Both the position numbers and the translations under genes were made by a program. This document shows positions 1,369 to 41,450 of a stretch of DNA of 41,474 nt, piece after piece. Source of the stretch: a virus (Duplodnaviria > Heunggongvirae > Uroviricota > Caudoviricetes). Each line of letters starts with the position of its first letter. The first letter of the stretch is position 1. Location: the IMG/VR virus record IMGVR_UViG_2734482774_000012, positions 1-41,474 of that record; one strand, given 5' to 3'. The notes under the pieces were generated by a model, which searched no databases, was not told the origin of the DNA, and worked only from the letters and a program-made list of their open reading frames with translations.

Positions 1369-1444
1369 GCCGATATAGCTCAGTTGGTAGAGCAGCGCAT
1401 TCGTAATGCGAAGGTCGTAGGTTCGACTCCTATTATCGGCACCA
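1369..1444 (+). tRNA. thrW: tRNA-Thr (anticodon CGU)
   Basis: 76-nt sequence GCCGATATAGCTCAGTTGGTAGAGCAGCGCATTCGTAATGCG...GGCACCA; manual cloverleaf gives anticodon CGT at positions 34-36, T-arm GGTTCGACTCC, 3' CCA; sits directly downstream of proA as thrW does. Confidence 0.9.
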
Positions 1445-1445
1445 T
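1399..1445. repeat. attL core: 47-bp direct repeat covering the 3' half of thrW
   Basis: ATTCGTAATGCGAAGGTCGTAGGTTCGACTCCTATTATCGGCACCAT is repeated exactly at 41404..41450; partial similarity continues a few bases beyond. Confidence 0.85.
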
Positions 1446-1458
1446 ATAAATCAATGAG

Positions 1459-2619
1459 TTACCTCACATTTAAGTAAACTACGTTCTCCTCTTGTGCCGT
1501 ATTTGTGCCATTGCGACTTATAATCGCATCGATTTTGCTCGCGTGCTCGGTGAGATGCCCGGCTGAAAGGTGGGCGTATCTTTGAACCATTTCGAGAGTT
1601 TCCCATCCTCCCATCTCTTTAAGTGCAAGAAGAGAGACACCGGACTGAACCAGCCAGCTTGCCCAGGTATGCCTCAGGTCATGGAAGCGGAAGTTGCTAA
1701 TGCCTGCCCGCTTTAACGCTCCCTTCCATGCCTTGTTGCTGTCGGTTCTCATCTTCCTTACCGCTGCTGTTTTTGTTCCGTCGCTTCGGTAGGCAGGTTT
1801 GGTGTGGACAAATACCCATCTCTTATGGAGCCCCTGCTGTTTTCTTAATATCTGGCATGCGGTTTCGTTAAGAGGAACTCCGATCGCATTGCCAGCTTTT
1901 GTTTCATCAGGGTGCATCCATGCCATTTTCTTATCCAGATCGACCTGTGACCACTCAAGGTCTGTAACGTTGGAACGGCGAAGGCCTGTCGTGATTGCAA
2001 ACATGACCACAGGGAAGAAGTGAGGAGCAATTTCTGCAAACAGGCGCTTCGATTCCTCCTCTGTAAGCCATCTGATGCGTCCATTCTTAACGCGTGGTGT
2101 TGATATTTTGGGTGCTCTGTCAAGCCATCCCCATTCAACAGCCATATTGAGAATGGCGCGAAGTATTGCCAGATGCCTCGTCTTCGTTCCTTTGCTTGCC
2201 AGCTTTGGTTTATACTCCGGCACCGGATTGCCAAGTCGCAAACACCTGTCCCGGCTCATCTCCCAGTTCAGGCGATGGCGGCGGTTTTCCATCCCGTCTA
2301 CCGCCTCCATTATTTTTTCTGTTGTTATGTCAGAGAGAATGGCTTCTCTGAAGTGCAACATCCAGAACGATATAATGCTCTTGTCATCATCAATGGACTT
2401 CTTATCCGATTTCTCACGCAGCCACCGTATGCAGGCTTCCTTGAATAGCTTTTTCGGTGATTCCCCGAGATTTTTTACTCTCCACGCTTCTGCTTTCAGA
2501 CGATCGTGAAGTTCTTGCGCTTGCCTTTTGTCCGATGTTTCAAGAGAGCGTCTAATTCTTGATCCATCTGGCGCGACGAAATCGCAGTGCCACGTGCCAC
2601 CGCGTAGTTTGATTGACAT
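1459..2619 (-). CDS. int: Tyrosine-type site-specific integrase
   Basis: 386-aa ORF, ATG start with strong RBS (AGGAGG); C-terminal HDLRHTWASWL...VQRYAHL motif typical of phage integrases (R-H-R-Y); adjacent to the tRNA att site. Confidence 0.9.
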   Translation of the reverse strand: MSIKLRGGTWHCDFVAPDGSRIRRSLETSDKRQAQELHDRLKAEAWRVKNLGESPKKLFKEACIRWLREKSDKKSIDDDKSIISFWMLHFREAILSDITTEKIMEAVDGMENRRHRLNWEMSRDRCLRLGNPVPEYKPKLASKGTKTRHLAILRAILNMAVEWGWLDRAPKISTPRVKNGRIRWLTEEESKRLFAEIAPHFFPVVMFAITTGLRRSNVTDLEWSQVDLDKKMAWMHPDETKAGNAIGVPLNETACQILRKQQGLHKRWVFVHTKPAYRSDGTKTAAVRKMRTDSNKAWKGALKRAGISNFRFHDLRHTWASWLVQSGVSLLALKEMGGWETLEMVQRYAHLSAGHLTEHASKIDAIISRNGTNTAQEENVVYLNVR

Positions 2620-2843
2620 GCTTTAACCTCCTGCACATCAACCGCATTCACCGCGCTATTGTGTCTCACAGACTTAAGCGCCGCAATGCAGTCTGACTTG
2701 CAAATGCGATATGGGCTTTTAGGTTTATCTGGATTTATCTTTGCGGCCTGAAGTCGTCCACTTCGTATCCACTGCGTGATAGTGCCTTTGTCTACCTTCA
2801 GATACGACGCTGCCTCTTCACGAGTGAAGATTTCTTCTTCCAC
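2496..2843 (-). CDS. xis: Excisionase / AlpA-like HTH DNA-binding protein
   Basis: N-terminus MEEEIFTREEAASYLKVDKGTITQWIRSGRL resembles Xis/AlpA HTH; apparent GTG start; 3' end overlaps int by about 124 nt in another frame, so the true stop is uncertain. Confidence 0.55.
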   Translation of the reverse strand: MEEEIFTREEAASYLKVDKGTITQWIRSGRLQAAKINPDKPKSPYRICKSDCIAALKSVRHNSAVNAVDVQEVKACQSNYAVARGTAISSRQMDQELDALLKHRTKGKRKNFTIV

Positions 2844-2933
2844 CTGGAATCTCCATTTATTGGATTGGTATTATTGCGGTAGGTCTGGATATCATTGAGC
2901 AATGAACAGGCCTCATCGAGTGTGAGGCTGTGG

Positions 2934-3278
2934 TTAGTCCTTGCGTAGCTCTCTGATTCTTCTGTAAGTCTCTGGTGCTTTGTTTCCGTGTATCTTCATT
3001 TCAGACTTCAACAGAGCAACGAGGGAATCCCATTCGTTGAGGATTCCTTTGAATGCCGGAACGCGCTTTGCAACCTTGTCGAATGAATCTCTGATTTCTG
3101 GAATCTGCTCAACAAGTGCAACGCATCGCCGAAAGTCTGCTGCGTCATGGGGAGCGTCGAAGTGATGGCCATAGATATTCTTTTTCAGTCCACATGCGAT
3201 TGAGGCAAGAGTTGCGCTACTGATGCCGACATCGCCAGTCGATTGCCATTTCAAAACCTTCATAGCCAAATCTGACAT
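2934..3278 (-). CDS. Hypothetical early-region protein (114 aa)
   Basis: ATG start with GGAG RBS; same strand as the early operon; no family recognised. Confidence 0.5.
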   Translation of the reverse strand: MSDLAMKVLKWQSTGDVGISSATLASIACGLKKNIYGHHFDAPHDAADFRRCVALVEQIPEIRDSFDKVAKRVPAFKGILNEWDSLVALLKSEMKIHGNKAPETYRRIRELRKD

Positions 3279-3385
3279 TTCTTGTCTCCATAAAACAAAA
3301 CCCGCCGTAGCGAGTTCAGATAAAAGAAATCCCCGCGAGTGCGAGGATTGTTATTCACCTTTGACGGCAAGTTGCAGGTTAGCCA

Positions 3386-3646
3386 TTACCGCACCTCCAG
3401 TCTCCATACCGCCTGACCAATCCGGCTGGCATAGGTATCTTTGGATACTGCTCCGTCTTTAGCCAGCTCCATAAGAATTTTGCGCAAATCTGCCGAACGC
3501 CATTCCTCATCAGGAAATTCCTTCTCCATTGCCAACCGCAGATTCCAGGTTGCCATCATGAATGGATATTCCCCGCCGAGAGCTTTATCTTGCAGGGCAG
3601 CCCGGGAACGCATCACCTGCAAAACCTTCTCTTTTACATCCATCAT
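3386..3646 (-). CDS. Hypothetical protein (about 86 aa)
   Basis: Longest ORF extends to 3718 but an ATGATGA start/stop overlap with the upstream gene and a GGAGG RBS at 3653-3657 favour a start at 3646. Confidence 0.45.
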   Translation of the reverse strand: MMDVKEKVLQVMRSRAALQDKALGGEYPFMMATWNLRLAMEKEFPDEEWRSADLRKILMELAKDGAVSKDTYASRIGQAVWRLEVR

Positions 3647-4185
3647 TTCGCCTCCTGCGGCGGTTCTGGTAGCGGCATCCAGTGTGACGGTTTCCACGAC
3701 GCACCAGGAATTATCCATCCATCATTAGCGTCAGGATGCCCCGGGATGTAAGTAGCCCATTTCATTCGCCAGTCACCTTTCCTGTCAAACTCCACGGCAA
3801 CAAGAACGGCTGTTTTGGTATTCGGCATTCGCTCACTACAGCTTATCCAACTATCCGGAGTTACCGGAGAGTTGCCATTTACATCGAAGTTTGGCTCTGC
3901 GTCCTGAACCAGGAGGATGTAACCATTCTTGGCTGTATCAAGTTCTAACGCCTCGGTGACGGTGCCGAAATAGCGATTACCTAAATCAGCATCACAAGTG
4001 CTTACATCAATGGAAACTTCCATGCCTTCGATTAAGTCTGGCAAGTTGTAAGTTTGGCTTACAGGTTCGGCTTCCAGCGATGCCAGTGCAATTCGTGCCA
4101 GTTCCATTTGTTCGCCACGAGTAAGCCCGTTTTCAAGCGGATCTTTAATGAACAATTCAATACGTTCTTTGGTAATAGAATTCAT
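3643..4185 (-). CDS. Phage protein with DUF551-like C-terminal domain (180 aa)
   Basis: C-terminal KPSHWMPLPEPP motif resembles the DUF551 family common in enterobacterial prophage early regions; ATG start with AGGTG RBS. Confidence 0.55.
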   Translation of the reverse strand: MNSITKERIELFIKDPLENGLTRGEQMELARIALASLEAEPVSQTYNLPDLIEGMEVSIDVSTCDADLGNRYFGTVTEALELDTAKNGYILLVQDAEPNFDVNGNSPVTPDSWISCSERMPNTKTAVLVAVEFDRKGDWRMKWATYIPGHPDANDGWIIPGASWKPSHWMPLPEPPQEAK

Positions 4186-4186
4186 G

Positions 4187-4378
4187 CTATTTCACCTTAA
4201 TCTCAACATTTCGCAGCTTTAGCTCTACTGGCAGGTCTGACTTTCCGGTTAATGCCAATGCGAGATTTTCTGGAGTAATGAGAGCAGTTATTGTTTTCCC
4301 CCTCGCCAGACGAATAATCATTCGTATCTCGCAATCGTCACATGCTCCAGGTCGAACAATTGATATTTGTCCATTCAT
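4187..4378 (-). CDS. Hypothetical small protein (63 aa)
   Basis: ATG-initiated ORF packed between neighbouring genes, same strand. Confidence 0.4.
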   Translation of the reverse strand: MNGQISIVRPGACDDCEIRMIIRLARGKTITALITPENLALALTGKSDLPVELKLRNVEIKVK

Positions 4379-4379
4379 C

Positions 4380-4688
4380 TCACTCTCCTTTGATGCGAAT
4401 GCCAGCGGCGCGGATTGCAGCGATGACCTCAGAAACTTTGTATGCCATTACCGTTTGGTAATCATCGTGAAAATCTGTTCGATGAAGCATGCTGCTACGT
4501 TCTGGGAGCAGTATTTCCCGTGCTTCCAGTTCTGCAATGCGCTTTTTGTCTGCTTCCCGTTCATCCAGTAGTGCCAGCACAACCTGAGGTGTGACTTTCA
4601 TACGAAATGCCAGCAATTTTTGAGGCGTTGCTACTGTTTCAATTGCTACTGCTGCCTCACGCAGTGCCTGGTAATTAATTTCGCTCAC
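4380..4688 (-). CDS. Hypothetical protein (102 aa)
   Basis: GTG start preceded by strong AAGGAGG RBS; GTGA overlap with the upstream stop. Confidence 0.5.
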   Translation of the reverse strand: MSEINYQALREAAVAIETVATPQKLLAFRMKVTPQVVLALLDEREADKKRIAELEAREILLPERSSMLHRTDFHDDYQTVMAYKVSEVIAAIRAAGIRIKGE

Positions 4689-5116
4689 TGGTTGCCTCCT
4701 TTGCGAAGCTGGGCAGCAAAGTCACGGATAGTGTCATCAAGGTCTGGGCACAACAGATGGTCAGCAAACATCTCTACCCCATGCGCCCGTACTTCAGCCA
4801 GGAAAGCATCGGTGGCTGGGGTTTCAGTAACATCATCTTCCCATTCGCCAAACTCCTCACGACAAAAGTCATTAAATTCCTTCTCAGATTGCTTAAGCGA
4901 GGTATTTTCTGCAGCCATCTTCGCGCATTTAGCCTCAAGGTTATCAATCGTGATTCCAGCAGAACGACACTCCCGCAACGCCGTTTCCAGTTTTGATTCA
5001 AGTTCACCGAACTTACGGACAAGATATTCAGCGTTTGTTTCGTTAACCTTTAAATCTCGGGGGATGCATTTACCTTTCAGAAAACCATCCATCTCAATTA
5101 GTGACATTTGTTTCAT
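4685..5116 (-). CDS. Hypothetical protein, possibly Ead/Ea22-like (about 143 aa)
   Basis: Longest ORF begins with GTG at 5134 lacking an RBS; ATG at 5116 overlaps the stop of the upstream small ORF (ATGA), so I place the start there. Acidic, coiled-coil-like composition. Confidence 0.5.
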
Positions 5117-5277
5117 TTTTTCCCACTCCGCCACATCGCATTCAGATATTTGTTTTGATTCACTGATGGAAAAGAATTTCTCTTAAGCAATTCCTCTCTC
5201 GATGGCATTGGCTTTACGCGTTGGCGAATAATCATTTCTGCCGGAAGAATGCCGGGGTTGTATGCAAGTCCTCTCAT
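5113..5277 (-). CDS. Hypothetical small protein (54 aa)
   Basis: Internal ATG at 5277 has a GAGGA RBS and follows the upstream stop; the longer 104-aa reading would overlap the preceding gene. Confidence 0.35.
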
Positions 5278-5287
5278 GGTAAATTCC

Positions 5288-5581
5288 TCAGTCATTACTG
5301 ATAGCGCCATAGCGTGAGCGGTAATTACGCAGGCGCGGGTCAATTTCAGGGAAGTGGGTATATGTGGCTTTGCGGAATGGTCGGATTGATGTCTGGTAAA
5401 TTCGCTCGCGTTCTTCTTTCTCTGCAAGCCATATACAATGGCGAAATTCCTTTTCCTCTTTCGTTTCCTGCGGTAGCGACATTATCCGATCGTAGTTTTT
5501 TCTGAATTTATCCAGCACCTCCGATACGGAATTGCCGGAACAGCGGCGCGGGTCATCCGCACCATACAGAGGCGCTGGCAT
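5288..5581 (-). CDS. Hypothetical protein (97 aa)
   Basis: ATG start with AGGAG RBS. Confidence 0.5.
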
Positions 5582-5597
5582 GGTTTTCTCCTGTTGA

Positions 5598-6146
5598 TTA
5601 TTTAGCTAACTTTTTCCAGATCGCTGAAACGTATTTGGCTTGGTGAATGGCATCATCAAGAGCGTTGTGGCGAGTTCCTTTGAATGGCATATCTCGCTTA
5701 GGGTCGAATCCTATTACCTTTCCAAGCTCGACGATTGTTCTTACGTCGCGGTCATTCCACCACTGCCATGGAACTGGCTGCCCTGTCAGCGAATAACTGT
5801 TTCGGAGAATAACGCAGTCAAATGATGCTCCATTCCCCCAAACCTGAACGAATTTGTGGTTAGCGTTCTTTATGATGAATTCAGATAACCATGAAAGAGC
5901 CGTTGAAAGCTCCTGAGTGTTGCTGGTTAGCGATTTTCTGGCTTCTTCACTCTGTTCCAGCCACCATAAAATCGTTGAAGCGTCAGGACGCGCCCGATAT
6001 CGCATTGATGACTCAAGCGAGATATTTACCGAGAACTCTTCTCCTGTTTCTCCGGTATTCGGGTCAAAGAATACCGCCCCAATAGAAATAACTGGCGCGT
6101 ATGGCCCGTTGCCCATTGTTTCAAGGTCAACCATCAAGTGATTCAT
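5598..6146 (-). CDS. 3'-5' exonuclease, DnaQ/DEDD-like (182 aa)
   Basis: N-terminal MVDLETMG (Exo I motif, D-x-E) and C-terminal HNALDDA (Exo III-like) are characteristic of DEDDh exonucleases; ATG with AAGGA RBS. Confidence 0.7.
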   Translation of the reverse strand: MNHLMVDLETMGNGPYAPVISIGAVFFDPNTGETGEEFSVNISLESSMRYRARPDASTILWWLEQSEEARKSLTSNTQELSTALSWLSEFIIKNANHKFVQVWGNGASFDCVILRNSYSLTGQPVPWQWWNDRDVRTIVELGKVIGFDPKRDMPFKGTRHNALDDAIHQAKYVSAIWKKLAK

Positions 6147-6154
6147 GTAAGTCC

Positions 6155-6634
6155 TTAAATTGCGTGAATAGCGTGACGAGGGAAGGGGAGAGTTACTGGT
6201 TCCTCGTCTGGGTAGATAGGTTTGTTATGTTTGTGCCACTCGACATGACATGACTTGCAGAGCCACATCACATCGGTTGGTTTGCTGTAGTCGCAGTGGT
6301 GCGCCTGTGGTTTACATTCTGATCCGCAGCACTCACATTGTGGTGGTCGGATTAGCTTACCGTCGCGCAAAAAATTACCCACAATGATGTGGGCTTTTCT
6401 TTTCCATGGGTTGCTCTGAATGAACCGCTTTTTGGCTGCGTTACACCGTTCTCTTCCGCGTTCCGATGATTGATATTCTCTCCTTGCTGATACTCGATGT
6501 GGCAATCCAGCGCGTTCTTTGTCGTATTCAGCCAGGCAAGCCCGGCAAGCGGCAGTTAATCCATCTCTGGATGCTCTTCTGATTTGAAAGTCCCTTTCTT
6601 CCTTCTGTTGATGGCATCTTGAGCAGATTTTCAT
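6155..6634 (-). CDS. Cys-rich HNH-like nuclease / zinc-finger protein (159 aa)
   Basis: N-terminal CxxC...CxxC and C-terminal HHCDY...WLCKSCH..WH arrangement resembles the HNH motif; assignment is from motif only. Confidence 0.5.
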   Translation of the reverse strand: MKICSRCHQQKEERDFQIRRASRDGLTAACRACLAEYDKERAGLPHRVSARREYQSSERGRERCNAAKKRFIQSNPWKRKAHIIVGNFLRDGKLIRPPQCECCGSECKPQAHHCDYSKPTDVMWLCKSCHVEWHKHNKPIYPDEEPVTLPFPRHAIHAI

Positions 6635-6643
6635 ATTCAGCTC

Positions 6644-7117
6644 CTAGAACGGAATATCCGAATCGTCGAAGTTCATAGGTGGTTCGCTGTGATTCCCATG
6701 CTGCTGAGATTGCTGTCTTTGTTGCTGGCCGTTATTTCGCTGAGGTGAAGACTGTTCATTGCCTCCTTGCTTGCCACCAAGCATTTGCATGGTTACACCA
6801 ACGCCTACGATAACTTCGGTAGTGAACCGATCCTGTCCGCTTTGATCCTGCCATTTTCTTGTCCGCAATTTGCCTTCAAGATAAACCTCTGAGCCTTTTC
6901 GCAGATATTCGCTGGCAATTTCTGCCAGTTTCCCGCTCATTACCACACGGTGCCACTCCGTCTGCTCCTTTTGCTCTCCAGTTTGCTTATCACGCCATTG
7001 TTCTGACGTAGCAACTGTAAGGTTTGCAAATGCCGTTCCTGATGGTGAATATCTGATTTCTGGATCATGCCCAAGGCGACCAATAATGATCACCTTATTT
7101 ACGCCTCTACTTCCCAT
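6644..7117 (-). CDS. ssb: Single-stranded DNA-binding protein
   Basis: OB-fold N-terminus ([18 protein letters not shown]...), Gly/Gln-rich linker and acidic C-terminal tail ending DDSDIPF, as in bacterial and phage SSBs. Confidence 0.85.
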
Positions 7118-7825
7118 TTATGCCGCCTGTTTTAGTTCGTTAACTCTGATGTTCATTACCTGGACGCATTTAGCCTGCGCCTCCTCGTTGCCAGCCATTA
7201 ATTGCCAGTCACGCTGATAACGCTCGATGAGTTTTTTCTTGTCAGTTTCTGTTGATGCATAATCGCTGAAGTCTTTCAGGATTTGTTCGCAGTCAACCGA
7301 TGGAGATTTCTGGTTGGTATTTTCTGGTGATGGTTTGTTATCTGATGCTGGGATTGCCCATCCCGGCAGCGATGGAGGGAGCCAGTAAAATCCTGTTCCA
7401 TCCTTCAGTTTTGCCCTGTGCCACCCATGCTTTTTATCGAGAGATGTTTGTGCGAAACCTTCCTCAAGGTTATACAGATACCGACCGATTCCCCACTGAA
7501 CGGCAGCACGCTTCATTGCACCTGAACGACCACCTTTGACGGCTTCTACCTGCGTGTTTTCAGCAGCATCCCATTTGGTTACCCATTCGGAATCAATCTT
7601 GATTGATATGCCGCATTCAACTCCGCCGTTGTTGGGAATATCGCGGTATTCATTGCGCCATCCTGCTTTGCCGCAAACATCGTCCAGGCGTTTCATGATT
7701 GCCCGGTTCGTGACATAAGCCAGCACCATAGCCCACACTTTTCCATCGCGTGTTTTACCGCTTTGCTGTATTCGCCATTCGATATCTTCAGGGCTGAATG
7801 GCTCATCGAATTTATTCAAATCCAT
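7118..7825 (-). CDS. Rad52/Rad22-type single-strand annealing protein
   Basis: Central GGRSGAMKRAAVQWGIGRYLY-type motif characteristic of the Rad52 family; sits with ssb and the exonuclease as a recombination module. Confidence 0.7.
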   Translation of the reverse strand: MDLNKFDEPFSPEDIEWRIQQSGKTRDGKVWAMVLAYVTNRAIMKRLDDVCGKAGWRNEYRDIPNNGGVECGISIKIDSEWVTKWDAAENTQVEAVKGGRSGAMKRAAVQWGIGRYLYNLEEGFAQTSLDKKHGWHRAKLKDGTGFYWLPPSLPGWAIPASDNKPSPENTNQKSPSVDCEQILKDFSDYASTETDKKKLIERYQRDWQLMAGNEEAQAKCVQVMNIRVNELKQAA

Positions 7826-7924
7826 AAATCACCTCAGAATGGACATGGCCCAAGGAAATAACGCTGATTTAATACTTCGACTCGGGACAAATTAAGGCAT
7901 ACCCGCATTCCTTCGCGGTCGCCA

Positions 7925-8083
7925 TTATGGCGATACCAGAGAGCTTTCTGCGTGTACATGCGTCTCTGTAACTTGCTCTCCTTCACTGTGGTTGCAAGTG
8001 ACATGAATATCTCCTTCGTTACCGATTAATTCTTTCATCTGACGAATGAATTCTTCGTCTGACCAGTTATCTGTAAAACTCAT
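7925..8083 (-). CDS. Hypothetical small protein (52 aa), coupled to the kil-like gene
   Basis: Manually translated (MSFTDNWSDEEFIRQMKELIGNEGD...); ATG overlaps the kil-like stop (ATGA). An alternative 56-aa ORF in another frame (7834..8004, strong AAGGAG RBS) overlaps it; only one is likely real. Confidence 0.3.
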   Translation of the reverse strand: MSFTDNWSDEEFIRQMKELIGNEGDIHVTCNHSEGEQVTETHVHAESSLVSP

Positions 8084-8232
8084 TTCCTGCGATACCACGG
8101 AAGGTTGATAGCTGATTTCATCGCTTTATTTGCTTCAAGCCACATTTTTGAATCACCAATAAATCTGGCTATTACTGCTTTGTTCTGTGCAGCACGAAGC
8201 ATCTGGTGATTAATGGCTATTTCATTGTGCAT
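8080..8232 (-). CDS. Kil-like small protein (50 aa)
   Basis: Manually translated MHNEIAINHQMLRAAQNKAVIARFIGDSKMWLEANKAMKS...; the FIGD-KM segment and the position between the CIII-like gene and the recombination genes resemble lambda Kil (recollection). Confidence 0.45.
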   Translation of the reverse strand: MHNEIAINHQMLRAAQNKAVIARFIGDSKMWLEANKAMKSAINLPWYRRK

Positions 8233-8351
8233 AACGCCTCCAGTTGTTTCTTTGCTGCTCTGATTAATTGTTTAACTCGGCGTGATAATTCAGATTCGTG
8301 CGGGTAGAAAGCGGACATGACGCCGCTACCCGCGAGCTGAAAGTGCATCAT
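8217..8351 (-). CDS. CIII-like protease-inhibitor peptide (44 aa)
   Basis: MMHFQLAGSGVMSAFYPHESELSRRVKQLIRAAKKQLEAL resembles the lambda CIII core (AG...ES-L--R-------L amphipathic helix); strong RBS (TAAGGAG, 7-nt spacer); correct position in the pL operon. Confidence 0.5.
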   Translation of the reverse strand: MMHFQLAGSGVMSAFYPHESELSRRVKQLIRAAKKQLEALCTMK

Positions 8352-8417
8352 GGGTAACTCCTTATATTTGATTGCATAACGAAAACGCCTCGAGTGAAGC
8401 GTTATTGGTATGCATAT

Positions 8418-8441
8418 AAAAAAGCCCTCACACTGGAGGGC
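8418..8441 (-). terminator. Intrinsic terminator candidate (tL1-like)
   Basis: On the minus strand GCCCTCCAGTGTGAGGGC hairpin followed by TTTTTT; lies between the small genes downstream of N and the CIII-like gene. Confidence 0.4.
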
Positions 8442-8536
8442 AAAGAAGATTTCCAATAATCAGAACAAGTCGGCTCCTGTTTAGTTACGAGCGACATTGC
8501 TCCGTGTATTCACTCGTTGGAATGAATACACAGTGC

Positions 8537-8722
8537 TTATTCGCGAGCTTTGAGCATTGCGTCTGCCATCGCATAAGCTTCTTTAGCAAGTGGTTCGTTG
8601 TCATAAAGCCTGTCTGGATTTGCACAAACTCCCTGCATGAACTTTGCTGCGAAGTAATCACGTAATGTCGCATCACTTGCCATTTCTGGGCGTTTGATAT
8701 CTGCTTCATAAAACTCGCACAT
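8537..8722 (-). CDS. Hypothetical small protein (61 aa)
   Basis: ATG at 8722 overlaps the stop of the upstream 44-aa ORF (ATGA coupling). Confidence 0.45.
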   Translation of the reverse strand: MCEFYEADIKRPEMASDATLRDYFAAKFMQGVCANPDRLYDNEPLAKEAYAMADAMLKARE

Positions 8723-8856
8723 CACTCACCTCCAAGAGCATTTGCAGCCTCTTTTGCTTTGTGAATCCATAGCAGAGCCATGTAGTACATAGCCTTTTCG
8801 TCGGCTCCTGTGATATCTTGCTCTGCCATCCATTTTGTAAATTCAACTGCGCTCAT
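8722..8856 (-). CDS. Hypothetical small protein (44 aa)
   Basis: Manually translated MSAVEFTKWMAEQDITGADEKAMYYMALLWIHKAKEAANALGGE; GAGGTG RBS. Confidence 0.4.
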   Translation of the reverse strand: MSAVEFTKWMAEQDITGADEKAMYYMALLWIHKAKEAANALGGE

Positions 8857-8895
8857 ATTCACCTCTGTTGTTTATGCCAAAAATAAAGGCCACCA

Positions 8896-9096
8896 TCAGG
8901 CAGCCTTGTTATTCTGTTTACCAAGTTCTCTGGCAATCATTGCCGTAGTTCGTATTGCCCATTTATCGACATATTTCCCATCCTCCATTACAGGAAACAT
9001 TTCTTCAGGCTTAACCATGCATTCCGATTGCAGCTTGCATCCATTGCATCGTTTGAATTGTCCACACCATTGATTCTTATCAATAGTCGTAGTCAT
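8896..9096 (-). CDS. Hypothetical Cys-containing small protein (66 aa)
   Basis: ATG-initiated ORF in the early operon downstream of N. Confidence 0.45.
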   Translation of the reverse strand: MTTTIDKNQWCGQFKRCNGCKLQSECMVKPEEMFPVMEDGKYVDKWAIRTTAMIARELGKQNNKAA

Positions 9097-9224
9097 ACGG
9101 ATAGTCCTGGTATTGTTCCATCACATCCTGAGGATGCTCTTCGAACTCTTCAAATTCTTCTTCCATATCTCACCTCAAATAAGTGGTTTGCTGCCTAATT
9201 TTATTTTCTGGCGACCAACACAAG

Positions 9225-9608: not shown

Positions 9609-9773
9609 ATAGACCTCCTGATGAACTTTGGTGGTGTGGTAGGTGGGAGACCCATTTCGACCTGTTTCGGCCTACTTCAATTCGGCAATAGTCCCGCAGG
9701 CCTCGCCGCTTTACGTGCGACATATTCCCGTCCATGAACCCTTCACCACACCCCAAAGTTCACTTTGGTTATT

Positions 9774-33207: not shown

Positions 33208-34479
33208 ATGGCTACTTGGCGACAAGGAATCAACTCAGGCGGCTTTCTAGCTGGTATCGGTGGGCAAAACTCAAATGCGCCAAAGGCAAGTGATGTAAGT
33301 GAGGCGTTGGCCTATATTCGCCAGAACAACGAAATGGAGCGTTCAGGTCGCAATAACATCGGCCTTCAGGCGTTGCAGGGACTTGGTAGTGTCGCTCAAA
33401 CATATCAAGCTGCAAAGCAACAGGAAGCGGATGCTGCATTCCAAAAAGAATATGCGGCAGCCATCCAGTCCGGTGATCGACAGCAGGTTCGAGATCTGAT
33501 GACCAAATATCCTGGTCAATTAGAGAAGATTCAGTCTGGTATGAAGTGGGCAGACGAAGACCAGCGCAATTCTATCGGCACCTTAGCGGCTGGCGCACGC
33601 CTTGCGTCATTGTCTCCAGAAGCAATGCAATCATGGCTGCAAAACAACGCCAAGGAACTGGCGCGCGTCGGTGTTGACCCTAACAGCGTTGCTCAGATGT
33701 ATCAGCAGAACCCTTCAGGATTTGGTGAGTTTGTTGATCACCTTGGGATGGCTGCTCTCGGTCCGATTGACTACTTCAATGTTCAGGACAAGATGGCTGG
33801 TCGCCAGCAGGAGCAGCAAAGAATTAACGAAACAATCCGTAATAATGACATGACAAATGCCAGAGGGTGGGCAAGCAACAATATTGCGCAACAAAATGTC
33901 AATCTTCGTCGGATGGAATTAGAGGACAAGAAATACGACAGACTCATCGCAAATGAAACTAATGCCTTAAAACTTGCTGAATTGCAGGACAAGAGATTGC
34001 AGAATCAGCAAGCTATGGAGCAGGCAAAGCGAGATAAGGCCGATGCGTACAACTCTGGAATGGATAATCTCTCCAGAACGATAGAGACGGCTACAAAAGT
34101 TCTTAATAGCCCAGGATTCACGGGATATTTCGGAACAAACCTAAACCCACTATCGAGTAGATTCATTCCAGGAACAGAGGCTGCTGATACAGAAACTCTG
34201 GTTGACACACTGAAATCTCAGGGATTCTTATCTGGCATTCAGCAGATGAAAGGGATGGGGGCTTTAAGTAATGCCGAGGGGCAAAAGGTAATGGATGCTA
34301 TTGGTAGTTTGTCCCCAAATCAGTCTGAAAAATCAGCCAGAGCAGCTATCAAAACAATCATAAAAACCACTGAGATGGCTCAGAAACGTATGCAACAGAA
34401 ATACGGGAAGGACATACAACCGTCTCAACAGCAGCTTTCTGATGATGACCTGATTAATAAATATCTCGGAGGGCAGTAA
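33208..34479 (+). CDS. Ejection protein (P22 gp20-like)
   Basis: Positional analogue, 423 aa. Confidence 0.55.
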
Positions 34480-36593
34480 TGGCCTATAGTCGCGAACAGT
34501 TGATGACGGCGTTAAGGAATGCTGATGCTGCCGGCGATACTGAGGGAGCACGTCGCATTGCTCAGATGCTGTCTTCTGGTGATCAATCCACTCAAAACCA
34601 ATCGCAGCCAGAAGAACAATCTCTGGTAGGAAAAGCCACTGACTGGCTCACTGGTGGTCAAAGCGCAGGGCAAATTGCAGAACAGGCTGGCCGTGGTCTG
34701 GTAAACATACCATTTGACGTATTGCAGGGTGGCGCAAGTCTGATTAATGCAATCAGCCAGGGACTTGGTGGCCCCAAGGTTTTGGATGATGTCTATCGTC
34801 CAGTCGATCGACCGACAGACCCTTACGCGCAAGCCGGTGAAACAATTGGTGGGTATCTCCTGCCAATTGGCACAGCGGCAAAAGCTGCTGGAGCGCCAGC
34901 AAAGCTCGCAGGAGACATCGGTTCCGCAGGAAACATGATTGCCGGTTCTCTTGCTGATGCTGCAAATCAGGAGGGTGATTTTGCACAAAATGCTGCCATT
35001 AACGGTGGTATCAATATTGGTGCTCAAGGCGTTCTTTCAGGTGTCGGGCGCGTTATTGCGCCAAGGGTTTCACAGGCTCTTGGTGGTGCAGCACTGAATT
35101 CTGCTAATGATGTTTCCATGATGGCAAAGTCAGGTGCTGGGCGTCAGTCAATTGCCAGTCAGGCCGCTAATGTGTCCGAAGATGTAGCAAAAGCGGCTGA
35201 GTCTGCTGGAATTGATATAAACGCATTAACACCGGGAATGCGATCTGGAAGTCGTGGAATTGCACAAGCCGAAGGCGCATTGGCATCAACACCAGGGATT
35301 GTTCAGGATGCCCATCAGGCAGCATTTAACGAAATATCATCAAAGTTAAGTCGAAACCTTGATGAATTTGGGGCCGCATCTGGAACTGCATCAGAAAAAA
35401 GTGCGGCTATAAAACAAAGGATTCTTCAAAATCTTGATCAGATGAAGGATGCCGAGCGCGCGGCATGGGATGACGTGCGGTCAACAATGCCAAATCAAAA
35501 AGCAAGAATGCTAAATGGTAATGCCGTTATTCAGGCAGAGCGATCTGCTGGCATACCGCTTACTCCTGAAATGAAACAGTTTGTTCAGGCAAACAATCAA
35601 GGTGGAGTAACATTTGATGGCATGAAAGCATGGAGAGCGAAATTTGCTGATGCGGAGCAAAAATATAAGCGTAGCGGAGAGGCAAATGCGGCAAGGAGAG
35701 CAGGGGAAATACGCCGGGCAATTACTGATGATATGCGCACAATGGCGGAAAACGGCGGATTTCTTGATGACTGGCAAAAAGCTAATGATCTGTCTAAAGC
35801 GAGGTTATCAGCACAAGAGAGTGCAGAGTCTGTTTTCGGGCGTGATTTGGCAACAGATGCACTGATTACGAATGGAGTAAAATCTCTTCAATCATCGTCA
35901 GCTAAAGGTCTTAATGGTCCTGCTGGATTCCATTCTATGATCCGCGCGCTGCCAGAATCAGAGCGTGTTCCTGCTATATCATCAATGTTGCAAGATGCTA
36001 TCTCGCATGGTGTACGTGGTGGCAAAGCTGATGCAGCAGGAATTAACCATATCGCAGGGATACTTACCCCACAAAATGTAAAAGCCATTAGCAGATATTC
36101 CTCAGAACTCGGAAGAATTGCTGATGCATATGGCACTCTTGCAAGAGCAGCAGTGAAACCTCAGCAGTATATTGAAAGAACAGGGAGAACTGCCAATGTA
36201 CTACGCGATCTGGATGCCGGTTTATCCAACGTCACATCAACAGTGTTAAATGCAATTGCCAACTCAACATCAGGTGCCATTGTTGGTGGAGCAGGAGGGG
36301 GCATTGCAGGCGCTGTCGCAGGTGCTTTAGTTGGCGCCGGGTTAAAAGGTGCTGTATCTAAAATTGCCACCACGCGTAGCGGTCGATATGCGATAGAGAA
36401 AGCAGTTCAAGAAGCCACGAAAGCAGTAAGAGCTGGCGGAAGTAAAGAAGCATTAGCGGCGGCGGAACGCAGATTTATGGCAAATAAAGCCGCCGTAAAA
36501 GCAATACGCGATGCTATTGGTAGCGATGAATTCAATCGCTTGTCGAGAGCTGGTATTGTCGCCTCGTTAAGCGGTATGAATGAATATGAATAG
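34479..36593 (+). CDS. Ejection protein (P22 gp16-like, 704 aa)
   Basis: Positional analogue; Ala/Gly-rich segments; last gene of the rightward structural operon. Confidence 0.55.
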
Positions 36594-36595
36594 CT

Positions 36596-37081
36596 TTATC
36601 TAATGTTGCTGCTACTGTTGCATGTGACGGTGTTTCCAAATCCTGAATTGCAGTTTGTATATGTGTCAACGCGTGTTGGGTAAGGTTGAGTTATAACAGG
36701 CTGGCGCGCTTTTTGCTCGATCGCTTGCATTGTGTTTACAGCCTGATAATTCAATAAAGCCTGCTGGAATGCTTGGCTTTGCGCTATTTGTTGGGCTTGT
36801 TCTTGGCTTTGTAATTGAACATAAAGATTCTGAAGCTCAAGTCTTGCCTGTGCGTCACTTATCTTGCCTTCATCGACACCTTGCCCGAGCATCTTCGCAG
36901 CAAGGACATACAGCTTAGGTGTTGGTGCTGATGCCATGCGTGAGTCGTTCTTCACGCTGGCATCAAGGCAATTAGCCATATCACTAAGCTTTGGATAGCG
37001 TTGTTCGCAACTTGCTTGGTAGTCACTTACTTTTGCGCATCCAGCCAGCAGAAGCGGGATAATTAATAGTGATTTTTTCAT
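36596..37081 (-). CDS. Predicted outer-membrane lipoprotein (161 aa), unrecognised
   Basis: Signal peptide with canonical lipobox LLAGC, +2 residue Ala; Q-rich helical middle; Cys-containing C-terminus; last gene of the mnt-side operon. Confidence 0.65.
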   Translation of the reverse strand: MKKSLLIIPLLLAGCAKVSDYQASCEQRYPKLSDMANCLDASVKNDSRMASAPTPKLYVLAAKMLGQGVDEGKISDAQARLELQNLYVQLQSQEQAQQIAQSQAFQQALLNYQAVNTMQAIEQKARQPVITQPYPTRVDTYTNCNSGFGNTVTCNSSSNIR

Positions 37082-37106
37082 AAAGTTATTTATAAAATCC
37101 TTTCTA

Positions 37107-37421
37107 TTATTTATCAGAAGTTAGATTGTAATAATTGGTATAAGCTGAAATTGACTTCTGGCATGCTTCAAGAAACTCCTGTGGATTCATTCCAAGTCTT
37201 GCTTGCTCTGTGGTCAGAAAACGCTGTAAGAACTCATCTCCGCCAGGCATTTTTGTTGATTCTTGAAATGTTGCCATTTGTTTGATTGTGCCGCACATGC
37301 CAGCAAATTTCGAAGTTATCATGAGTTCTTGCAGGCCTTTAAGATCGCCATTATCTGATTTTTGTTTGGCGCAAACTATTGTAGAGAAGAACAATATTAA
37401 CAAAATAGCGATGCGTTTCAT
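37107..37421 (-). CDS. Predicted exported protein (104 aa), unrecognised
   Basis: N-terminal signal peptide MKRIAILLILFFSTIVCA; ATG overlaps the mnt stop (ATGA). Confidence 0.55.
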   Translation of the reverse strand: MKRIAILLILFFSTIVCAKQKSDNGDLKGLQELMITSKFAGMCGTIKQMATFQESTKMPGGDEFLQRFLTTEQARLGMNPQEFLEACQKSISAYTNYYNLTSDK

Positions 37422-37669
37422 TCTTCACCGTTGCCATGCATACATTTTAACTTCTCAACCTCATGCTCAAGCTCTATCAACCGCGATGCTATAGTTGCAA
37501 TATCTAGTGCTTGAATATGTTTATTTTTTTCAGTCCATGCCTCAAGTGCTGCTACCATCTCAGCATTTAATGAACGAGAATTAGCCTCAGCCAGCTCAAT
37601 AAGACGTTCCTTTATCTCTACAGGAAGCCTCAGATTCACTTGAGGGTTTTTGTACTTACGATCAGACAT
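37418..37669 (-). CDS. mnt: Mnt-like ribbon-helix-helix repressor
   Basis: N-terminal NLRLPVEIKERLIELAEANSRSLNAEMVAALE is an Arc/Mnt/MetJ-type RHH motif; position and orientation match P22 mnt relative to arc-ant. Confidence 0.7.
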   Translation of the reverse strand: MSDRKYKNPQVNLRLPVEIKERLIELAEANSRSLNAEMVAALEAWTEKNKHIQALDIATIASRLIELEHEVEKLKCMHGNGEE

Positions 37670-37773
37670 CGGCGCATCCTGAATAATTATTTACCACAGG
37701 ATATGTAGGTATCTATTGACTATCAATGCGTACCTAAATACTATGTATGCGTACCACATACAAAGGAGCAAAA

Positions 37774-37920
37774 ATGAAAGTTAAGACATTAAGGATGCCA
37801 GAATGGCTGGAAAAGGCTTTGGAGCAGTCCGCGAAAAAGGATGATCGGTCGTTCAGTAATGAGGTATTGAGGAGACTAAAGGAGTCAGTAGCTAAGGATG
37901 GAATTGTTTGTCCAGAATGA
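37774..37920 (+). CDS. arc: Arc-like ribbon-helix-helix repressor (48 aa)
   Basis: Manually translated MKVKTLRMPEWLEKALEQSAKKDDRSFSNEVLRRLKESV...; RHH pattern; AAAGGAG RBS; immediately upstream of ant. Confidence 0.6.
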   Translation: MKVKTLRMPEWLEKALEQSAKKDDRSFSNEVLRRLKESVAKDGIVCPE

Positions 37921-37986
37921 GTAAAGCCCAAGCTATTGCGAGTAGCTCGGGCTTAAATCGCCAGTAAATTTTGAGGAAAAACTGAC

Positions 37987-38910
37987 ATGAAAAGTATAGC
38001 AACAGCAGTATCTACTATCAACGTGCCATTCCACGGCGCAGAGCTTTATGTCGTCAATCACAACGGTGAGCCGTACACCCCAATGAAACCTATCGTTGAG
38101 GGAATGGGGCTAGACTGGAAATCTCAACATAAGAAGATTTCTCAACGCTTCTCGAAGGGTATGGTGGAAATCACCATACCTTCTGCCGGTGGGGTGCAAG
38201 CCATGATTTGTATGGCTTTACGAAAATTGGCAGCTTGGTTGAACAGCATCAGTCCTAACAAAGTCCGCCCTGAAATCCGCGACAAGGTAATCCAGTATCA
38301 GGAAGAGTGTGACGATGTGCTCTACGAATACTGGACTAAAGGCTATGTGGTTAACCCGCGCAAAGCTAAAAAGGCGTTGCCTGGTAAAATCACCACTGAA
38401 CAGCAGGAAGCTATTAAACAGCTCGTCATGAGTCGCGGTCAGTCTCTGCCAAAAGAAAAACAGGCGAAGGCGATGATCACCATGTGGTCGTCACTGAAAT
38501 CCCATTTTGGATGTTCGTACAAAGAAATTAGTGAGGAGCAGTTTACCGAAGCACTGTCACTTGCAGCTCGAGTTCCACTTGAAGGTGAGTTCATCGGCAA
38601 ACAAGAGAAGAAAACCAACGAGCTTTCTGCAAAAGAAGCAAACAGCCTTGTATGGTTATGGGATTATGCCAACCGCTCACAGGCATTATTCCGCGAACTG
38701 TATCCGGCATTAAAACAAATTCAATCGAACTATTCCGGCAGATGCTACGACTACGGTCATGAGTTCTCGTATGTTATCGGAATGGCGAGGGACGTTTTAA
38801 TCAATCACACACGAGATGTTGATATTAATGAGCCAGACGGACCAACGAATCTTTCCGCATGGATGAGACTTAAGAATAAAGAATTACCTCCTTCAGTACA
38901 TAACTACTGA
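37987..38910 (+). CDS. ant: Antirepressor Ant (307 aa)
   Basis: Position after mnt/arc; size and N-terminal domain typical of P22-type antirepressors (recollection). Confidence 0.75.
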   Translation: MKSIATAVSTINVPFHGAELYVVNHNGEPYTPMKPIVEGMGLDWKSQHKKISQRFSKGMVEITIPSAGGVQAMICMALRKLAAWLNSISPNKVRPEIRDKVIQYQEECDDVLYEYWTKGYVVNPRKAKKALPGKITTEQQEAIKQLVMSRGQSLPKEKQAKAMITMWSSLKSHFGCSYKEISEEQFTEALSLAARVPLEGEFIGKQEKKTNELSAKEANSLVWLWDYANRSQALFRELYPALKQIQSNYSGRCYDYGHEFSYVIGMARDVLINHTRDVDINEPDGPTNLSAWMRLKNKELPPSVHNY

Positions 38911-38927
38911 CAGATAACCAACGCAAC

Positions 38928-38952
38928 GACCCAGCTTCGGCTGGGTTTTTTT
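38928..38952 (+). terminator. Intrinsic terminator after ant
   Basis: CCCAGC-TTCG-GCTGGG hairpin followed by TTTTTTT. Confidence 0.65.
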
Positions 38953-39010
38953 ATGCCCAAAATTCACCGTGGCCACGCTGCGGCGATTCATTGTATCTGG
39001 AGCAAATTAA

Positions 39011-41002
39011 ATGACAGACATTACAGCCAATGTGATCGTATCGATGCCTTCGCAACTTTTCACTATGGCTCGTTCTTTTAAATCAGTAGCCAATGGCAAA
39101 ATTTATATCGGTAAAATTGACACTGACCCGGTAAATCCTGAAAACCAGATTCAGGTTTATGTGGAAAACGAAGACGGTTCTCACGTTCCTGTTGAACAGC
39201 CAATCATCATTAACGCTGCTGGATATCCGGTATATAACGGACAGATTGCCAAATTCGTAACTGAGCAAGGCCATTCTATGGCTGTTTATGATGCGTATGG
39301 TTCTCAGCAGTTCTATTTTCCGAATGTGCTGAAGTATGACCCAGATCAGTTTGCATCAAAGTTAGCTTCAGATTTAGGAGCGTCAATGATCGGTACATCT
39401 AATGGTGATACGGTTCAGCAGTGGCTTGATAAATTCCCCCCATTATACGCTGAAGAATTTGGTGACCTATCTGTTACAGACGCAACAACAATACTACAGA
39501 ATGCAATAGATTCGGCATCATTACAATGTCGTGAATTAAAAGTAAGGACGCCAATTATAAATGTTAGGCAACTCAAGCTACCCAACAATACCATTTTGAA
39601 TCTTGGTATGTGCACTTTAAGACAAATATCTAATACAAATAAGCCGTTAATCAGAAACGATGTGTTTGGATATACTGATAAAGTTCATACAAACTCAAAT
39701 ATTACTATTATTGGTGGGGTTCTTGATTTTAATGGTTCAAACCAGTCTGACACTACGGCAACAGGAGAAGTTAATGTCGGCTGTGCATTTTTTGGGGTGA
39801 AAGGCCTTCATTTTCGTGGCTCAACAAAATTCATTAATGCCAGACGTTATAGTTTTTTTGCTGCAAATTGTGCAAACATTACTTTTGATGATCCGGTTGT
39901 TGAAAACGACCCGGCAATACCAAGTAGCAATAAAGATGGCTTACATTTTTGCGGAAAAGTTTACGGTATTTCAATAAAAAGTATTTATGTTTATAACCCA
40001 GAAGATGATGCACTAGCTATAAATGCTGATGATGTAGATCATGGTGGGGAATGGACTCGCGCTAACATTACTGGAGCAATAGATAATGTTTGGGTTGGGC
40101 AAGTTCGTGTGGATGGTCCTTCATCGCATAACGGTGTGCGTTTGCTAAGTGCGTCACCCAACACACCTATTTCAAATGTGAAAATTGATTCAATTGTAGG
40201 TAAAGTAGATAATTATTTTCTTAATATTCAACCATACGGTTTAGGTACCTCATCGGTATACCACAATATTGATATCGGCATTATAGGAGGAATATATTCT
40301 GTCAGAACCAATCCTGCATTTACTCATGGCATGGTAAATATCTACACTATGAAGCCGAACCCAGCAGTTTTGAATAATATTCATATTGGTCAGATTTTTC
40401 GTGATCAGGAAATTGGCGATGGACAGGATCGTCCGACTGTACAGTTATGTGTTGAAAACACTTCTGTTACATTTGATAAAATTGTCGAGCAGAATTGTGC
40501 TAATGATGCTGTCGTTAGGGTAACGGAGATAGGACCTGCGGCTTTTATAACTCTAAACGAAGCATACAAAAAATCCACCCGAACCTTAACTCCTGGTGTG
40601 TATGGTTCCATCGTAATTGTAAGTAATGTTAACGACAATCAACTTGAACACCTTAAAATTGGATTCAATTCTGCAGATAGACTACGTCACGTTGTATTGG
40701 CAAGGTCTGTAAAAATTAAACGTTTGGATATGTTTAGTGATGGTTCAGCAGACAACATCCCTCTGTATCTTGAATCATCCCAGGTAACTAATCTTAATTG
40801 GAATAGTAGTGTTCCATCCACTTATCAATTTACTGCACATCGCTATACGCTTTCAGGTGAATCGTCTGCTGTAATATTTGAACGCCCTGCTGTTACAGGT
40901 GGGAGTACTACAGAACGCCCAGTAAATGCAATAATTGGTGACAGTTTCTATGATACGACAACGAATACTCGTGTGAACTGGAATGGATTTAATTGGGTGT
41001 GA
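39011..41002 (+). CDS. Tailspike: P22 gp9-type head-binding domain fused to a divergent beta-helix receptor-binding domain (663 aa)
   Basis: First ~115 residues ([17 protein letters not shown]...[38 protein letters not shown]...[13 protein letters not shown]...NVLKYDPDQ) closely resemble the P22 tailspike N-terminal domain; the remainder has parallel beta-helix composition but does not resemble P22 gp9. Confidence 0.85.
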
Positions 41003-41403
41003 TGCAACAGGAATGGAATCTAGTCGATGCACTGTGGTATATAATGTGAAAATTAGTGCAAAAAAAACTCAATCATTACATGTTAATATTTGTCTTATGC
41101 TAATGCCTAATTTGCTATTAGGAGGTAACTACAATATAAATCCAGCTATGAAATAATTACATCATCTCCAGAAATCACCTGAAAAAACCACTAGACAGAA
41201 CCAAGACACACAAAGCTTTGCACTGGATTGCAAGGCTTTGTGCTCTTCTATGCTGAGTGGCTACATGTTTGAAGATCGTTGTGCCGTATTTGTGACATAC
41301 ACATGACAACATCATGCATCAACTTTCTGTTTGTGCCATCAACTATTGCTTGGTGAATGCGGTTAATGCTTGCTAAAACAGATAGTTATGATTGGTGCTA
41401 CAG

Positions 41404-41450
41404 ATTCGTAATGCGAAGGTCGTAGGTTCGACTCCTATTATCGGCACCAT
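41404..41450. repeat. attR core: 47-bp direct repeat of the thrW 3' end
   Basis: Exact copy of 1399..1445; the preceding ~400 bp is AT-rich and non-coding (attP arm). Confidence 0.85.

Follow-up and report, generated by a model that had tools for sequence, protein, structure and literature searches.

P22-like prophages at thrW and the pervasive mosaicism of lambdoid phages are textbook material (e.g. PMC2629481, PMC10883804), and several phages described in this context, above all the P22-like Escherichia coli K1 phage CUS-3, provide a frame for the element analysed here. The DNA in question is IMG/VR virus record IMGVR_UViG_2734482774_000012, whose full length of 41,474 nucleotides (nt) we refer to as the window. 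With a probability of about 0.8, we read positions 1399-41450 as the complete genome of a temperate P22-like lambdoid podovirus (Lederbergvirus-like, CUS-3 procapsid subtype), which an integrase of the SfX/HK446 type inserted at the 3' end of thrW in E. coli. All feature coordinates are given in Table 1.

Six reference phages (lambda, P22, CUS-3, HK97, Sf6 and HK620) were compared locally with the window by blastn and tblastn. CUS-3 (CP000711) is the best overall relative, having the same gene order and 19.3 kb of aligned sequence, with protein identities of 99-100% for portal, scaffold and gp4, 95% for coat, 98% for gp10, 97% for gp16, 99% for the helicase and 99% for the lysis proteins S and R. 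CUS-3 differs in having its own integrase, an attachment (att) site with a 16-bp core, a P22 c2-like repressor, different N and recombination genes, a different TerL (65%), gp20 (39%) and needle, as well as an endosialidase tailspike and neuO. The lambdoid siphovirus HK97 (NC_002167) shares the 9164-15284 block, including a G->A change in OR1 and the junction of a lambda pL with a P22-type boxB, but has HK97-fold siphovirus head and tail genes, and its int, att and Q are of the lambda type. The Shigella phage Sf6 (NC_005344) shares the recombination-cIII block, the ninG-Rz/Rz1 block and a knobbed tail needle, whereas its immunity is of the 434 type, its int is different, its head genes are Sf6-type, it lacks immI and it carries oac and an endorhamnosidase tailspike; in addition, its ninG is interrupted by IS911, while that of the prophage is intact. 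P22 (NC_002371), the Salmonella phage that is the prototype of the group, has in common with the prophage the gene order, the thrW target, the boxB sequence and a number of similar proteins (helicase 90%, gp10 92%, ninG 95%, Rz 90%). However, only 9.7 kb of P22 align at the nucleotide level, mostly at 68-92%, its scaffold and terminase are unrelated by tblastn, its immunity is c2-type, its sieA, sieB and gtrABC are absent in the prophage, and it encodes the lysozyme gp19 rather than an R-type transglycosylase. Lambda (NC_001416) aligns over only 4.9 kb and shares cI, Cro, OL, OR, ninF-ninI, S and R, but differs in rexAB, N, nutL, cII, O, P, ninB, ninC, ninD, Q, Rz, int and all virion genes. 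At the level of whole genomes, CUS-3 aligns over 19.3 of 40.05 kb (~48%) at ~94%, which amounts to about 45% overall, where the genus level of the International Committee on Taxonomy of Viruses is about 70%; of the recognised members P22, Sf6 and HK620, too, only 9.7-14.6 kb can be aligned with the window.

The borders of the prophage are directly visible. A first-pass annotation of this DNA had described exact 47-bp att repeats at thrW, and the repeat search confirms both their coordinates and their length. The pair brackets 40,052 bp and is the sole direct-repeat family of at least 25 nt within the window, which rules out a chance match; the left copy forms the 3' part of thrW and, as it completes the tRNA, the two copies make up a classic attL/attR pair at a tRNA 3' end. 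The tRNA-Thr(CGT) is identified as thrW by its place 3' of proA (window 1-1254), which in E. coli strain UTME-7 likewise precedes an annotated tRNA-Thr. Over positions 1-1398, identity is 100% with UTME-7 and 95-99% with the majority of the other complete E. coli genomes. The assertion that the prophage was recently integrated had to be dropped, since two identical 47-bp cores within a conserved tRNA gene do not reveal how long ago integration took place.

The att repeat extends imperfectly to 64 nt (1399-1462 and 41404-41467, at 95% identity) because the remnant of an older integrase gene adjoins attR. Directly to the right of attR, positions 41451-41474 belong to a frameshifted P22-type integrase pseudogene without an N-terminus, which continues in GCA_013113445.2 (12441-13450 of the locus compared) and is followed there by ykg genes; it is what remains of an earlier element that had integrated at thrW. 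Elsewhere in E. coli, for instance in strain 1506, this flank forms the 3' end of the intact integrase gene of a second prophage lying in tandem. In UTME-7, whose proA allele is identical, another island (4445-5900 of the locus compared) with an 'ABC-three component system' and IS1 comes after thrW, thus marking thrW as a busy integration hotspot and making this strain unusable as an empty attB reference.

The integrase had been called intact, and it is: the protein aligns end to end with P22 Int (207/387 identical, 54%) and is identical at 382 of 386 residues to Int of the isolated lambdoid siphovirus HK446 (NC_019714), which is annotated as SfX-like. In addition, Xis is identical to HK446 Xis at all 115 residues, and the attP rebuilt from the left arm of attR and the right arm of attL matches the annotated attP of HK446 ('similar to thrW'). 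The integration module is thus the same as in a viable phage, the remainder of HK446 being a siphovirus genome.

The origins of the modules can be read from the count of the best of the six references at each base within the prophage, which assigns 12,919 bases to CUS-3, 7,827 to Sf6, 6,831 to HK97, 2,855 to HK620, 740 to P22 and 109 to lambda, with about 22% matched by none of the six. The first-pass labels, which named only lambda and P22 as sources, are therefore partly right under BLAST mapping and should name HK97, Sf6, CUS-3, HK620 and HK446 instead. A direct lambda x P22 recombinant, with junctions created in this lineage, might be suggested by cI, cro, the operators, S and R, which are 96-99% identical to lambda, by ninF-ninI, which are also close to it, and by boxB, the helicase and gp10, which are close to P22. 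Yet lambda and P22 are the best match for only 109 and 740 of the 40,052 bp, every such stretch is matched at least equally by HK97, Sf6 or CUS-3 (equally in the case of ninF-ninI) and in longer blocks, the pL-nutL junction is identical in HK97, and portal, scaffold, coat and terminase are not of the P22 type. Contradicted by both the blastn/tblastn comparison and the best-match count, such a hybrid was rejected, and we consider it very improbable.

The complete P22-like lambdoid genome that we favour instead is apparent from its layout. The early region follows the lambdoid order int-xis-ea-recombination-N-cI-cro-cII-replication-nin-Q-lysis, and the cluster from terS to the tailspike, including immI, has all its genes in P22 order, each as a single open reading frame (ORF). 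The virion genes match the Pfam families P22_portal, P22_CoatProtein, P22_Tail-4, Phage_stabilise, Phage_tail_NK, DUF2824, P22_gp7, Inj_translocase, Phage_P22_gp16 and Head_binding. Gene order and Pfam families therefore bear out the description of the portal-to-gp16 genes as P22-like, but their sequence is of the CUS-3 type: the portal is 99% identical to CUS-3, 55% to Sf6 and 35% to P22, the scaffold is 99% identical to CUS-3 and 32% to Sf6 with no match in P22, and the coat protein is 95% identical to CUS-3 and 29% to P22 with no match in Sf6. By these three sequences, the prophage can be placed in the CUS-3-type procapsid subgroup of the P22-like phages. TerS is 90% and TerL 65% identical to CUS-3, TerL having no match to P22 and being listed in identical form in 78 blocks of the collection. 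The tail needle carries a knob of the Sf6 type and is 81% identical to the Sf6 needle, and among the ejection proteins gp16 is 97% identical to CUS-3, while gp20 is closest to Sf6 (53%, versus 39% to CUS-3). For gp14, none of the six references matched by tblastn; the protein covers PHROG 651 and DUF2824 end to end. The immI region (37418-38910; PF03869, PF10547, PF10548) is P22-like, as had been proposed, in having mnt, arc and ant, but CUS-3-like in sequence, with Ant only 58% identical to P22.

The immunity and replication region stems from a different source, since 6.1 kb (9164-15284) comprising N, nutL, pL/OL, gp48, gp49, cI, OR, cro, nutR, cII, gp53, O and the DnaB-type helicase P are 99.1% identical to HK97. 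cI, cro and the operators were correctly regarded as lambda-like, given the identities listed in Table 1 for cI, Cro, OL1-3, OR2 and OR3, and by these sequences the prophage can be assigned to the lambda immunity group (imm-lambda). The repressor differs from lambda cI at residues 3 and 71, positions that we take to coincide with neither the Ala111-Gly112 cleavage site nor the catalytic residues in the C-terminal part. The single change in OR1 (12204-12220; TACCTCTAGCGGTGATA versus TACCTCTGGCGGTGATA in lambda) is also carried by HK97 and is thus a natural allele of the HK97-type immunity region. Similarity to lambda stops just past the pL transcription start, and a P22-type nutL boxB lies downstream of the lambda pL/OL. 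A lambda pL fused to a P22-type nutL/N is hence an accurate description; the junction, however, was not made in this prophage but is identical in HK97, and it was inherited intact with an HK97-type block. Similarly, the P22-like character ascribed to N holds for its boxB, its arginine-rich motif (GNSRSRRRERLK) and its C-terminus, which resemble P22 gp24, but the protein as a whole is 100% identical to HK97 N and just 41/100 identical to P22 gp24. The helicase, which had also been called P22-like, is indeed 90% identical to P22 gp12; the replication genes match PF04492 and PF00772/PF03796.

The tailspike is the part of the genome that stands apart, and its P22-like label applies to the head-binding domain, which is 74% identical to P22, but not to the rest of the protein, which matches no P22 or HK620 tailspike: resemblance to either ends by residue ~115-130, and PDB matches are confined to residues 1-125. 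The best match in phage records is to Sf6 (43% over residues 1-326), and no phage record matches beyond residue 326. For the receptor-binding domain (residues ~130-663; 39400-41002), only 18 homologues with E <= 1e-5 were found among 5.8 billion proteins, and the domain has no relative that has been characterised. Several of these, 39-73% identical, carry a different N-terminal adaptor, PF18668, and this fusion elsewhere suggests exchange of the domain between phage types. An AlphaFold model built from the alignment of homologues (mean predicted local distance difference test score, pLDDT, of 90) shows a right-handed beta-helix. Among solved structures, its fold comes nearest to the tailspikes of HK620 and CBA120 and to further depolymerases, with sequence identities of 12-14%. 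The modelled protein thus has a normal tailspike architecture combined with a rare, uncharacterised specificity, and its receptor-binding domain may depolymerise an O-antigen or capsule of E. coli of a type for which no phage enzyme is known. Between tailspike and attR (41003-41403), there are only ~400 bp of non-coding DNA, and no gtrABC, oac or neuO-type cassette for O-antigen or capsule modification is present at this position, where P22, Sf6 and CUS-3 carry one.

No insertion sequence, transposase, frameshift, stop codon or truncation was found in about 65 genes. The early, replication, lysis and morphogenesis genes each occupy one ORF, none of the reference genes is divided between two ORFs of the window, and each gene of these classes matches a gene of an isolated phage, a PHROG or a Pfam profile over essentially its full length, including those for which a near-identical reference is lacking but PHROG or Pfam matches are full-length (xis, terS, terL, needle, gp7, gp20, Ant, Mnt and Rha). 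The uninterrupted gene set proposed at the outset thus withstood a search for frameshifts and truncations in essential genes. Together with the blocks that are near-identical to the viable phages HK97, CUS-3 and HK446 and to Sf6, this supports a complete phage, which is plausibly functional and inducible.

Independent copies bear on the joins between the modules. The right-hand 12.4 kb (29011-41474 or 41433) recur at 100% identity in GCA_013113445.2 and in two Logan assemblies, and GCA_039727785.1 has the same prophage at proA-thrW, with 100% identity over 1-12619 and 99.97% (7 mismatches) over 13083-33803. An assembly chimera of several lambdoid prophages from one genome could be envisaged, as the long near-identical segments of such prophages can mislead assemblers and as two Logan contigs end inside the att core. 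It was rejected and is left with a vanishingly small probability, because the same joins occur in independent NCBI and Logan assemblies (1-12619, 13083-33803 and 29011-41474, at 99.97-100% identity), with a further 20 and 17 similar places beyond those listed. The prophage of GCA_039727785.1 diverges abruptly at 33803, inside gp20, and being identical up to this point and divergent beyond it, the two prophages point to a very recent exchange of the distal module. This would fit the published view that mosaicism in P22-like genomes is greatest among the ejection proteins and tailspikes (PMC10883804). Sequence comparison identifies 33803 as a breakpoint of recent recombination that may have been used repeatedly; the matches to Sf6 and to a further prophage stop at this coordinate as well.

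Some points weigh against a functional phage. Excision, replication and particle formation are deduced from sequence, as is the assembly of this combination of ejection proteins, needle and tailspike, and inactivating missense or promoter mutations are invisible to comparisons of this kind. TerL, gp20 (at the identities given above) and the receptor-binding domain are without a close relative among the phages searched, and the case for their function is made by full-length family matches and identical copies in bacterial assemblies. An exact search of the viral contig collection with the reconstructed 77-nt attP junction gave 0 matches and hence no sign of a free or circular form, although such a search is an uninformative proxy for excision. 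The lack of a free form would also fit a cryptic (defective) prophage, which looks complete but has lost its lytic cycle through point mutations, module incompatibility or a regulatory defect; the gp20-to-tailspike module is a recent swap relative to the GCA_039727785.1 prophage and may not be compatible with the rest, and the degraded integrase remnant beside attR indicates that elements at thrW do decay. However, the gene set shows none of the lesions sought, large blocks are 97-100% identical to genes of plaque-forming phages, and P22 hybrids described in the literature accept ejection-protein sets from other phages, CUS-3 and Sf6 among them (PMC10883804). We therefore regard a cryptic prophage as unlikely and favour the complete temperate phage.

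Table 1. Coordinates of prophage features and of blocks similar to reference phages (positions in the window; aa, amino acids).
Feature	Position	Strand	Evidence or closest match
tRNA-Thr(CGT) thrW, intact, regenerated at attL	1369-1444	+	ARAGORN; Rfam tRNA 71.8 bits
attL core, exact 47-bp direct repeat	1399-1445		repeat search
Tyrosine integrase, 386 aa, SfX/HK446 type	1459-2619	-	complete PF00589 catalytic domain
Excisionase, 115 aa, overlapping int as in P22	2496-2843	-	PF12728 HTH_17; PHROG 2907 full length
ea-type accessory genes, mostly HK620-like (94-97% nt)	2934-5581	-	blastn, tblastn, profile matches
Block: HK620-like ea genes	3659-5581		94-97%
DEDDh 3'-5' exonuclease, Rv2179c-like, 182 aa	5598-6146	-	PF16473 E=2.9e-73; PHROG 255
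Recombination/early-left genes	6155-8351	-	proteins 97-100% identical to references; Pfam families
ral, restriction alleviation	8896-9096	-	PF11058; 96-98% nt to lambda, Sf6, CUS-3
Antiterminator N, 127 aa	9225-9608	-	PF25694; 100% HK97 N
nutL boxB GCGCTGACAAAGCGC	9774-9788	-	identical to P22 nutL boxB
OL1-OL3 and pL	9859-9919	-	identical to lambda
Two rexA/rexB-position genes between cI and OL	10103-11148	-	100% HK97 gp48, gp49
cI repressor, 237 aa	11433-12146	-	235/237 lambda cI; 100% HK97 cI
OR3-OR2-OR1 with pRM, pR	12157-12220	+	OR2, OR3 identical to lambda; OR1 one G->A
cro	12247-12447	+	65/66 identical to lambda
nutR: boxA CGCTCTTTT, boxB TCGCTGACAAAGCGA	12455-12500	+	sequence comparison
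cII (HK97 type), gp53-like, O initiator (273 aa), DnaB-type helicase P (458 aa)	12585-15256	+	99-100% HK97
Block: Sf6-like	15253-15894		
nin region: three small Sf6-like genes, ninB, ninE, ninX, ninF, ninG, ninH, ninI	15329-18718	+	tblastn, profiles
Block: HK620-like ninB and ninE	16127-16713		
Block: Sf6-like ninG-ninI, Q, tRNA-Asn/Thr, S, R, Rz/Rz1	17353-20899		97.7%
Late antiterminator Q, phage-21/Sf6/CUS-3 type, 172 aa	18709-19227	+	PF06530
Phage tRNA-Asn(GTT) and tRNA-Thr(TGT)	19291-19446	+	ARAGORN, Rfam
Lysis cassette S, R transglycosylase, Rz, embedded Rz1 (20668-20853)	19689-20906	+	tblastn
Rha-like regulator, Sf6 gp66-like (PF13876), DUF2560 genes	21112-22640	+	Pfam, PHROG
Block: Sf6-like	21632-22638		
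Terminase TerS (147 aa), TerL (492 aa)	22643-24561	+	PHROG 309; PF04466
Block: CUS-3-like, from within terL through portal, scaffold, coat, gp4, gp10	23737-31346		93.8%
Portal, scaffold, coat, small ORF, gp4 (CUS-3-type procapsid)	24563-29689	+	PF16510, PF11651, PF11650
gp10, knobbed tail needle gp26 (317 aa), gp14	29699-32549	+	Pfam, PHROG, tblastn
Ejection proteins gp7, gp20, gp16	32524-36593	+	PF25688, PF16928, PF26808; PHROG full length
Block: CUS-3-like gp16	34604-36578		96%
Two morons, sieA position: 161-aa lipoprotein (MKKSLLIIPLLLAGC...), 104-aa signal-peptide protein	36596-37421	-	PHROG 6067, 19844, unknown function
mnt	37418-37669	-	92% to CUS-3
arc, 48 aa	37774-37920	+	profile match
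Block: CUS-3-like ant and tailspike start	37984-39351		96%
ant	37987-38910	+	98% to CUS-3, 58% to P22
Tailspike, 663 aa: P22-type head-binding domain and beta-helix receptor-binding domain	39011-41002	+	PF09008
attR core, exact 47-bp direct repeat	41404-41450		repeat search

The remaining regions are mosaic in a similar manner. In the nin region, the lambda-like assignment is sound for ninF, ninG, ninH and ninI, which are 85-98% identical to lambda, but not for ninB, which is HK620-type (38% to lambda), nor for the P22-like ninX, and ninC and ninD are absent; three small Sf6-like genes lie upstream of ninB. Q is 99% identical to Sf6 gp59, recorded as similar to phage 21 Q, and 98% identical to CUS-3 Q, and it had no match in lambda by tblastn. 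A tRNA pair that Sf6 also annotates as 'similar to phage 21' separates the holin gene from the phage-21-type Q/pR' region, and an Rfam scan of the window at gathering thresholds returned three tRNAs only, with no curated sar or other phage RNA family. The lysis cassette is lambda-like, as had been suggested, with respect to S and R (98% identical, with the dual start MKM of S intact), but its Rz/Rz1 are of the P22/HK97 type, Rz being 59% identical to lambda and 90-97% to P22, HK97 and Sf6, with Rz1 intact.

In the left arm, the ea-type region encodes 114-aa and 86-aa proteins of unknown function, DUF551, hkaF-like, Ead/Ea22, hkaH-like and DUF2737 proteins and the anti-RecBCD protein Abc2, and the recombination block encodes an Sf6 gp26-like protein, SSB, an Erf/Rad52-type annealase, two small genes, Kil and cIII. 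This block is 98.7% identical to Sf6 over 6155-8234 and 99.2% identical to HK97 over 7833-8543 (blastn). Between abc2 and the Sf6 gp26-like gene lies the DEDDh exonuclease gene, which none of the six reference phages has. As many as 6169 blocks of the collection contain a protein identical to it, which in the five places detailed belongs to lambdoid prophages, and it is thus too widespread for tracing the same prophage.

Two gene pairs are of interest with respect to the lysogen. The two genes in the rexA/rexB position, of which the gp48-type one encodes a Ser/Thr/Gln-rich protein of 216 aa with a predicted coiled coil and a C-terminal transmembrane helix, had no Pfam or NCBIfam match, and their sole PADLOC match, of the gp49-like protein, was not significant (E=0.0095); a literature search on HK97 gp48/gp49 returned unrelated structural papers only. 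Both are presumed to be active in the lysogen, and exclusion is a candidate function for them. The pair in the sieA position had no Pfam, PADLOC or significant NCBIfam match either. P22 SieA is an inner-membrane protein that is encoded between genes 16 and 9 and has the motif FxRYPxEAxxFNK (PMC10883804); as neither this motif nor a tblastn match to P22 sieA was found in the pair, the two proteins are not SieA homologues; they may be morons located in the envelope. Since the rex-position, sieA-position and ea genes, the latter likewise scanned for defence systems, had no significant match in PADLOC, Pfam or NCBIfam, we do not claim a defence system for any of them.

From the known biology of the homologous modules, we infer how the prophage would operate. 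In the lysogen, the lambda/HK97-type cI, co-transcribed with the two HK97 gp48/gp49-like genes, would bind at OL and OR and repress pL and pR. RecA-stimulated autocleavage of cI, or the action of Ant from immI, would lift this repression upon induction, whereupon the HK97-type N would act on nut sites with the P22-type boxB to antiterminate the early operons. O and the DnaB-type helicase would then replicate the genome, Int and Xis would excise the prophage across the 47-bp cores, and the phage-21-type Q would turn on the late operon, so that the CUS-3-type head genes could package DNA by a headful mechanism and S, R, Rz and Rz1 could lyse the cell. Finally, the beta-helix domain of the tailspike is predicted to recognise and cleave a surface polysaccharide.

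Judged by sequence comparison, what is new in this prophage is the combination of modules, as the modules themselves are known from CUS-3, HK97, Sf6, HK620 and HK446; the only rare part is the receptor-binding domain of the tailspike. The divergence inside gp20 may capture a host-range switch in progress, in which ejection proteins, immI and tailspike were exchanged, and the gp48/gp49-type and sieA-position pairs may have new superinfection-exclusion functions. That the receptor-binding specificity, the host-range switch through the distal module and the superinfection-exclusion pairs are jointly new is possible but doubtful. For basic biology, the prophage carries little weight, since every regulatory junction highlighted earlier is already present in sequenced phages. 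Its value lies in providing a clean, well-delimited CUS-3-type P22-like prophage with lambda/HK97 immunity, in a nearly identical sister prophage, which pins a recent recombination event to a point within gp20, and in a rare tailspike depolymerase domain of possible use in glycan typing or phage engineering.

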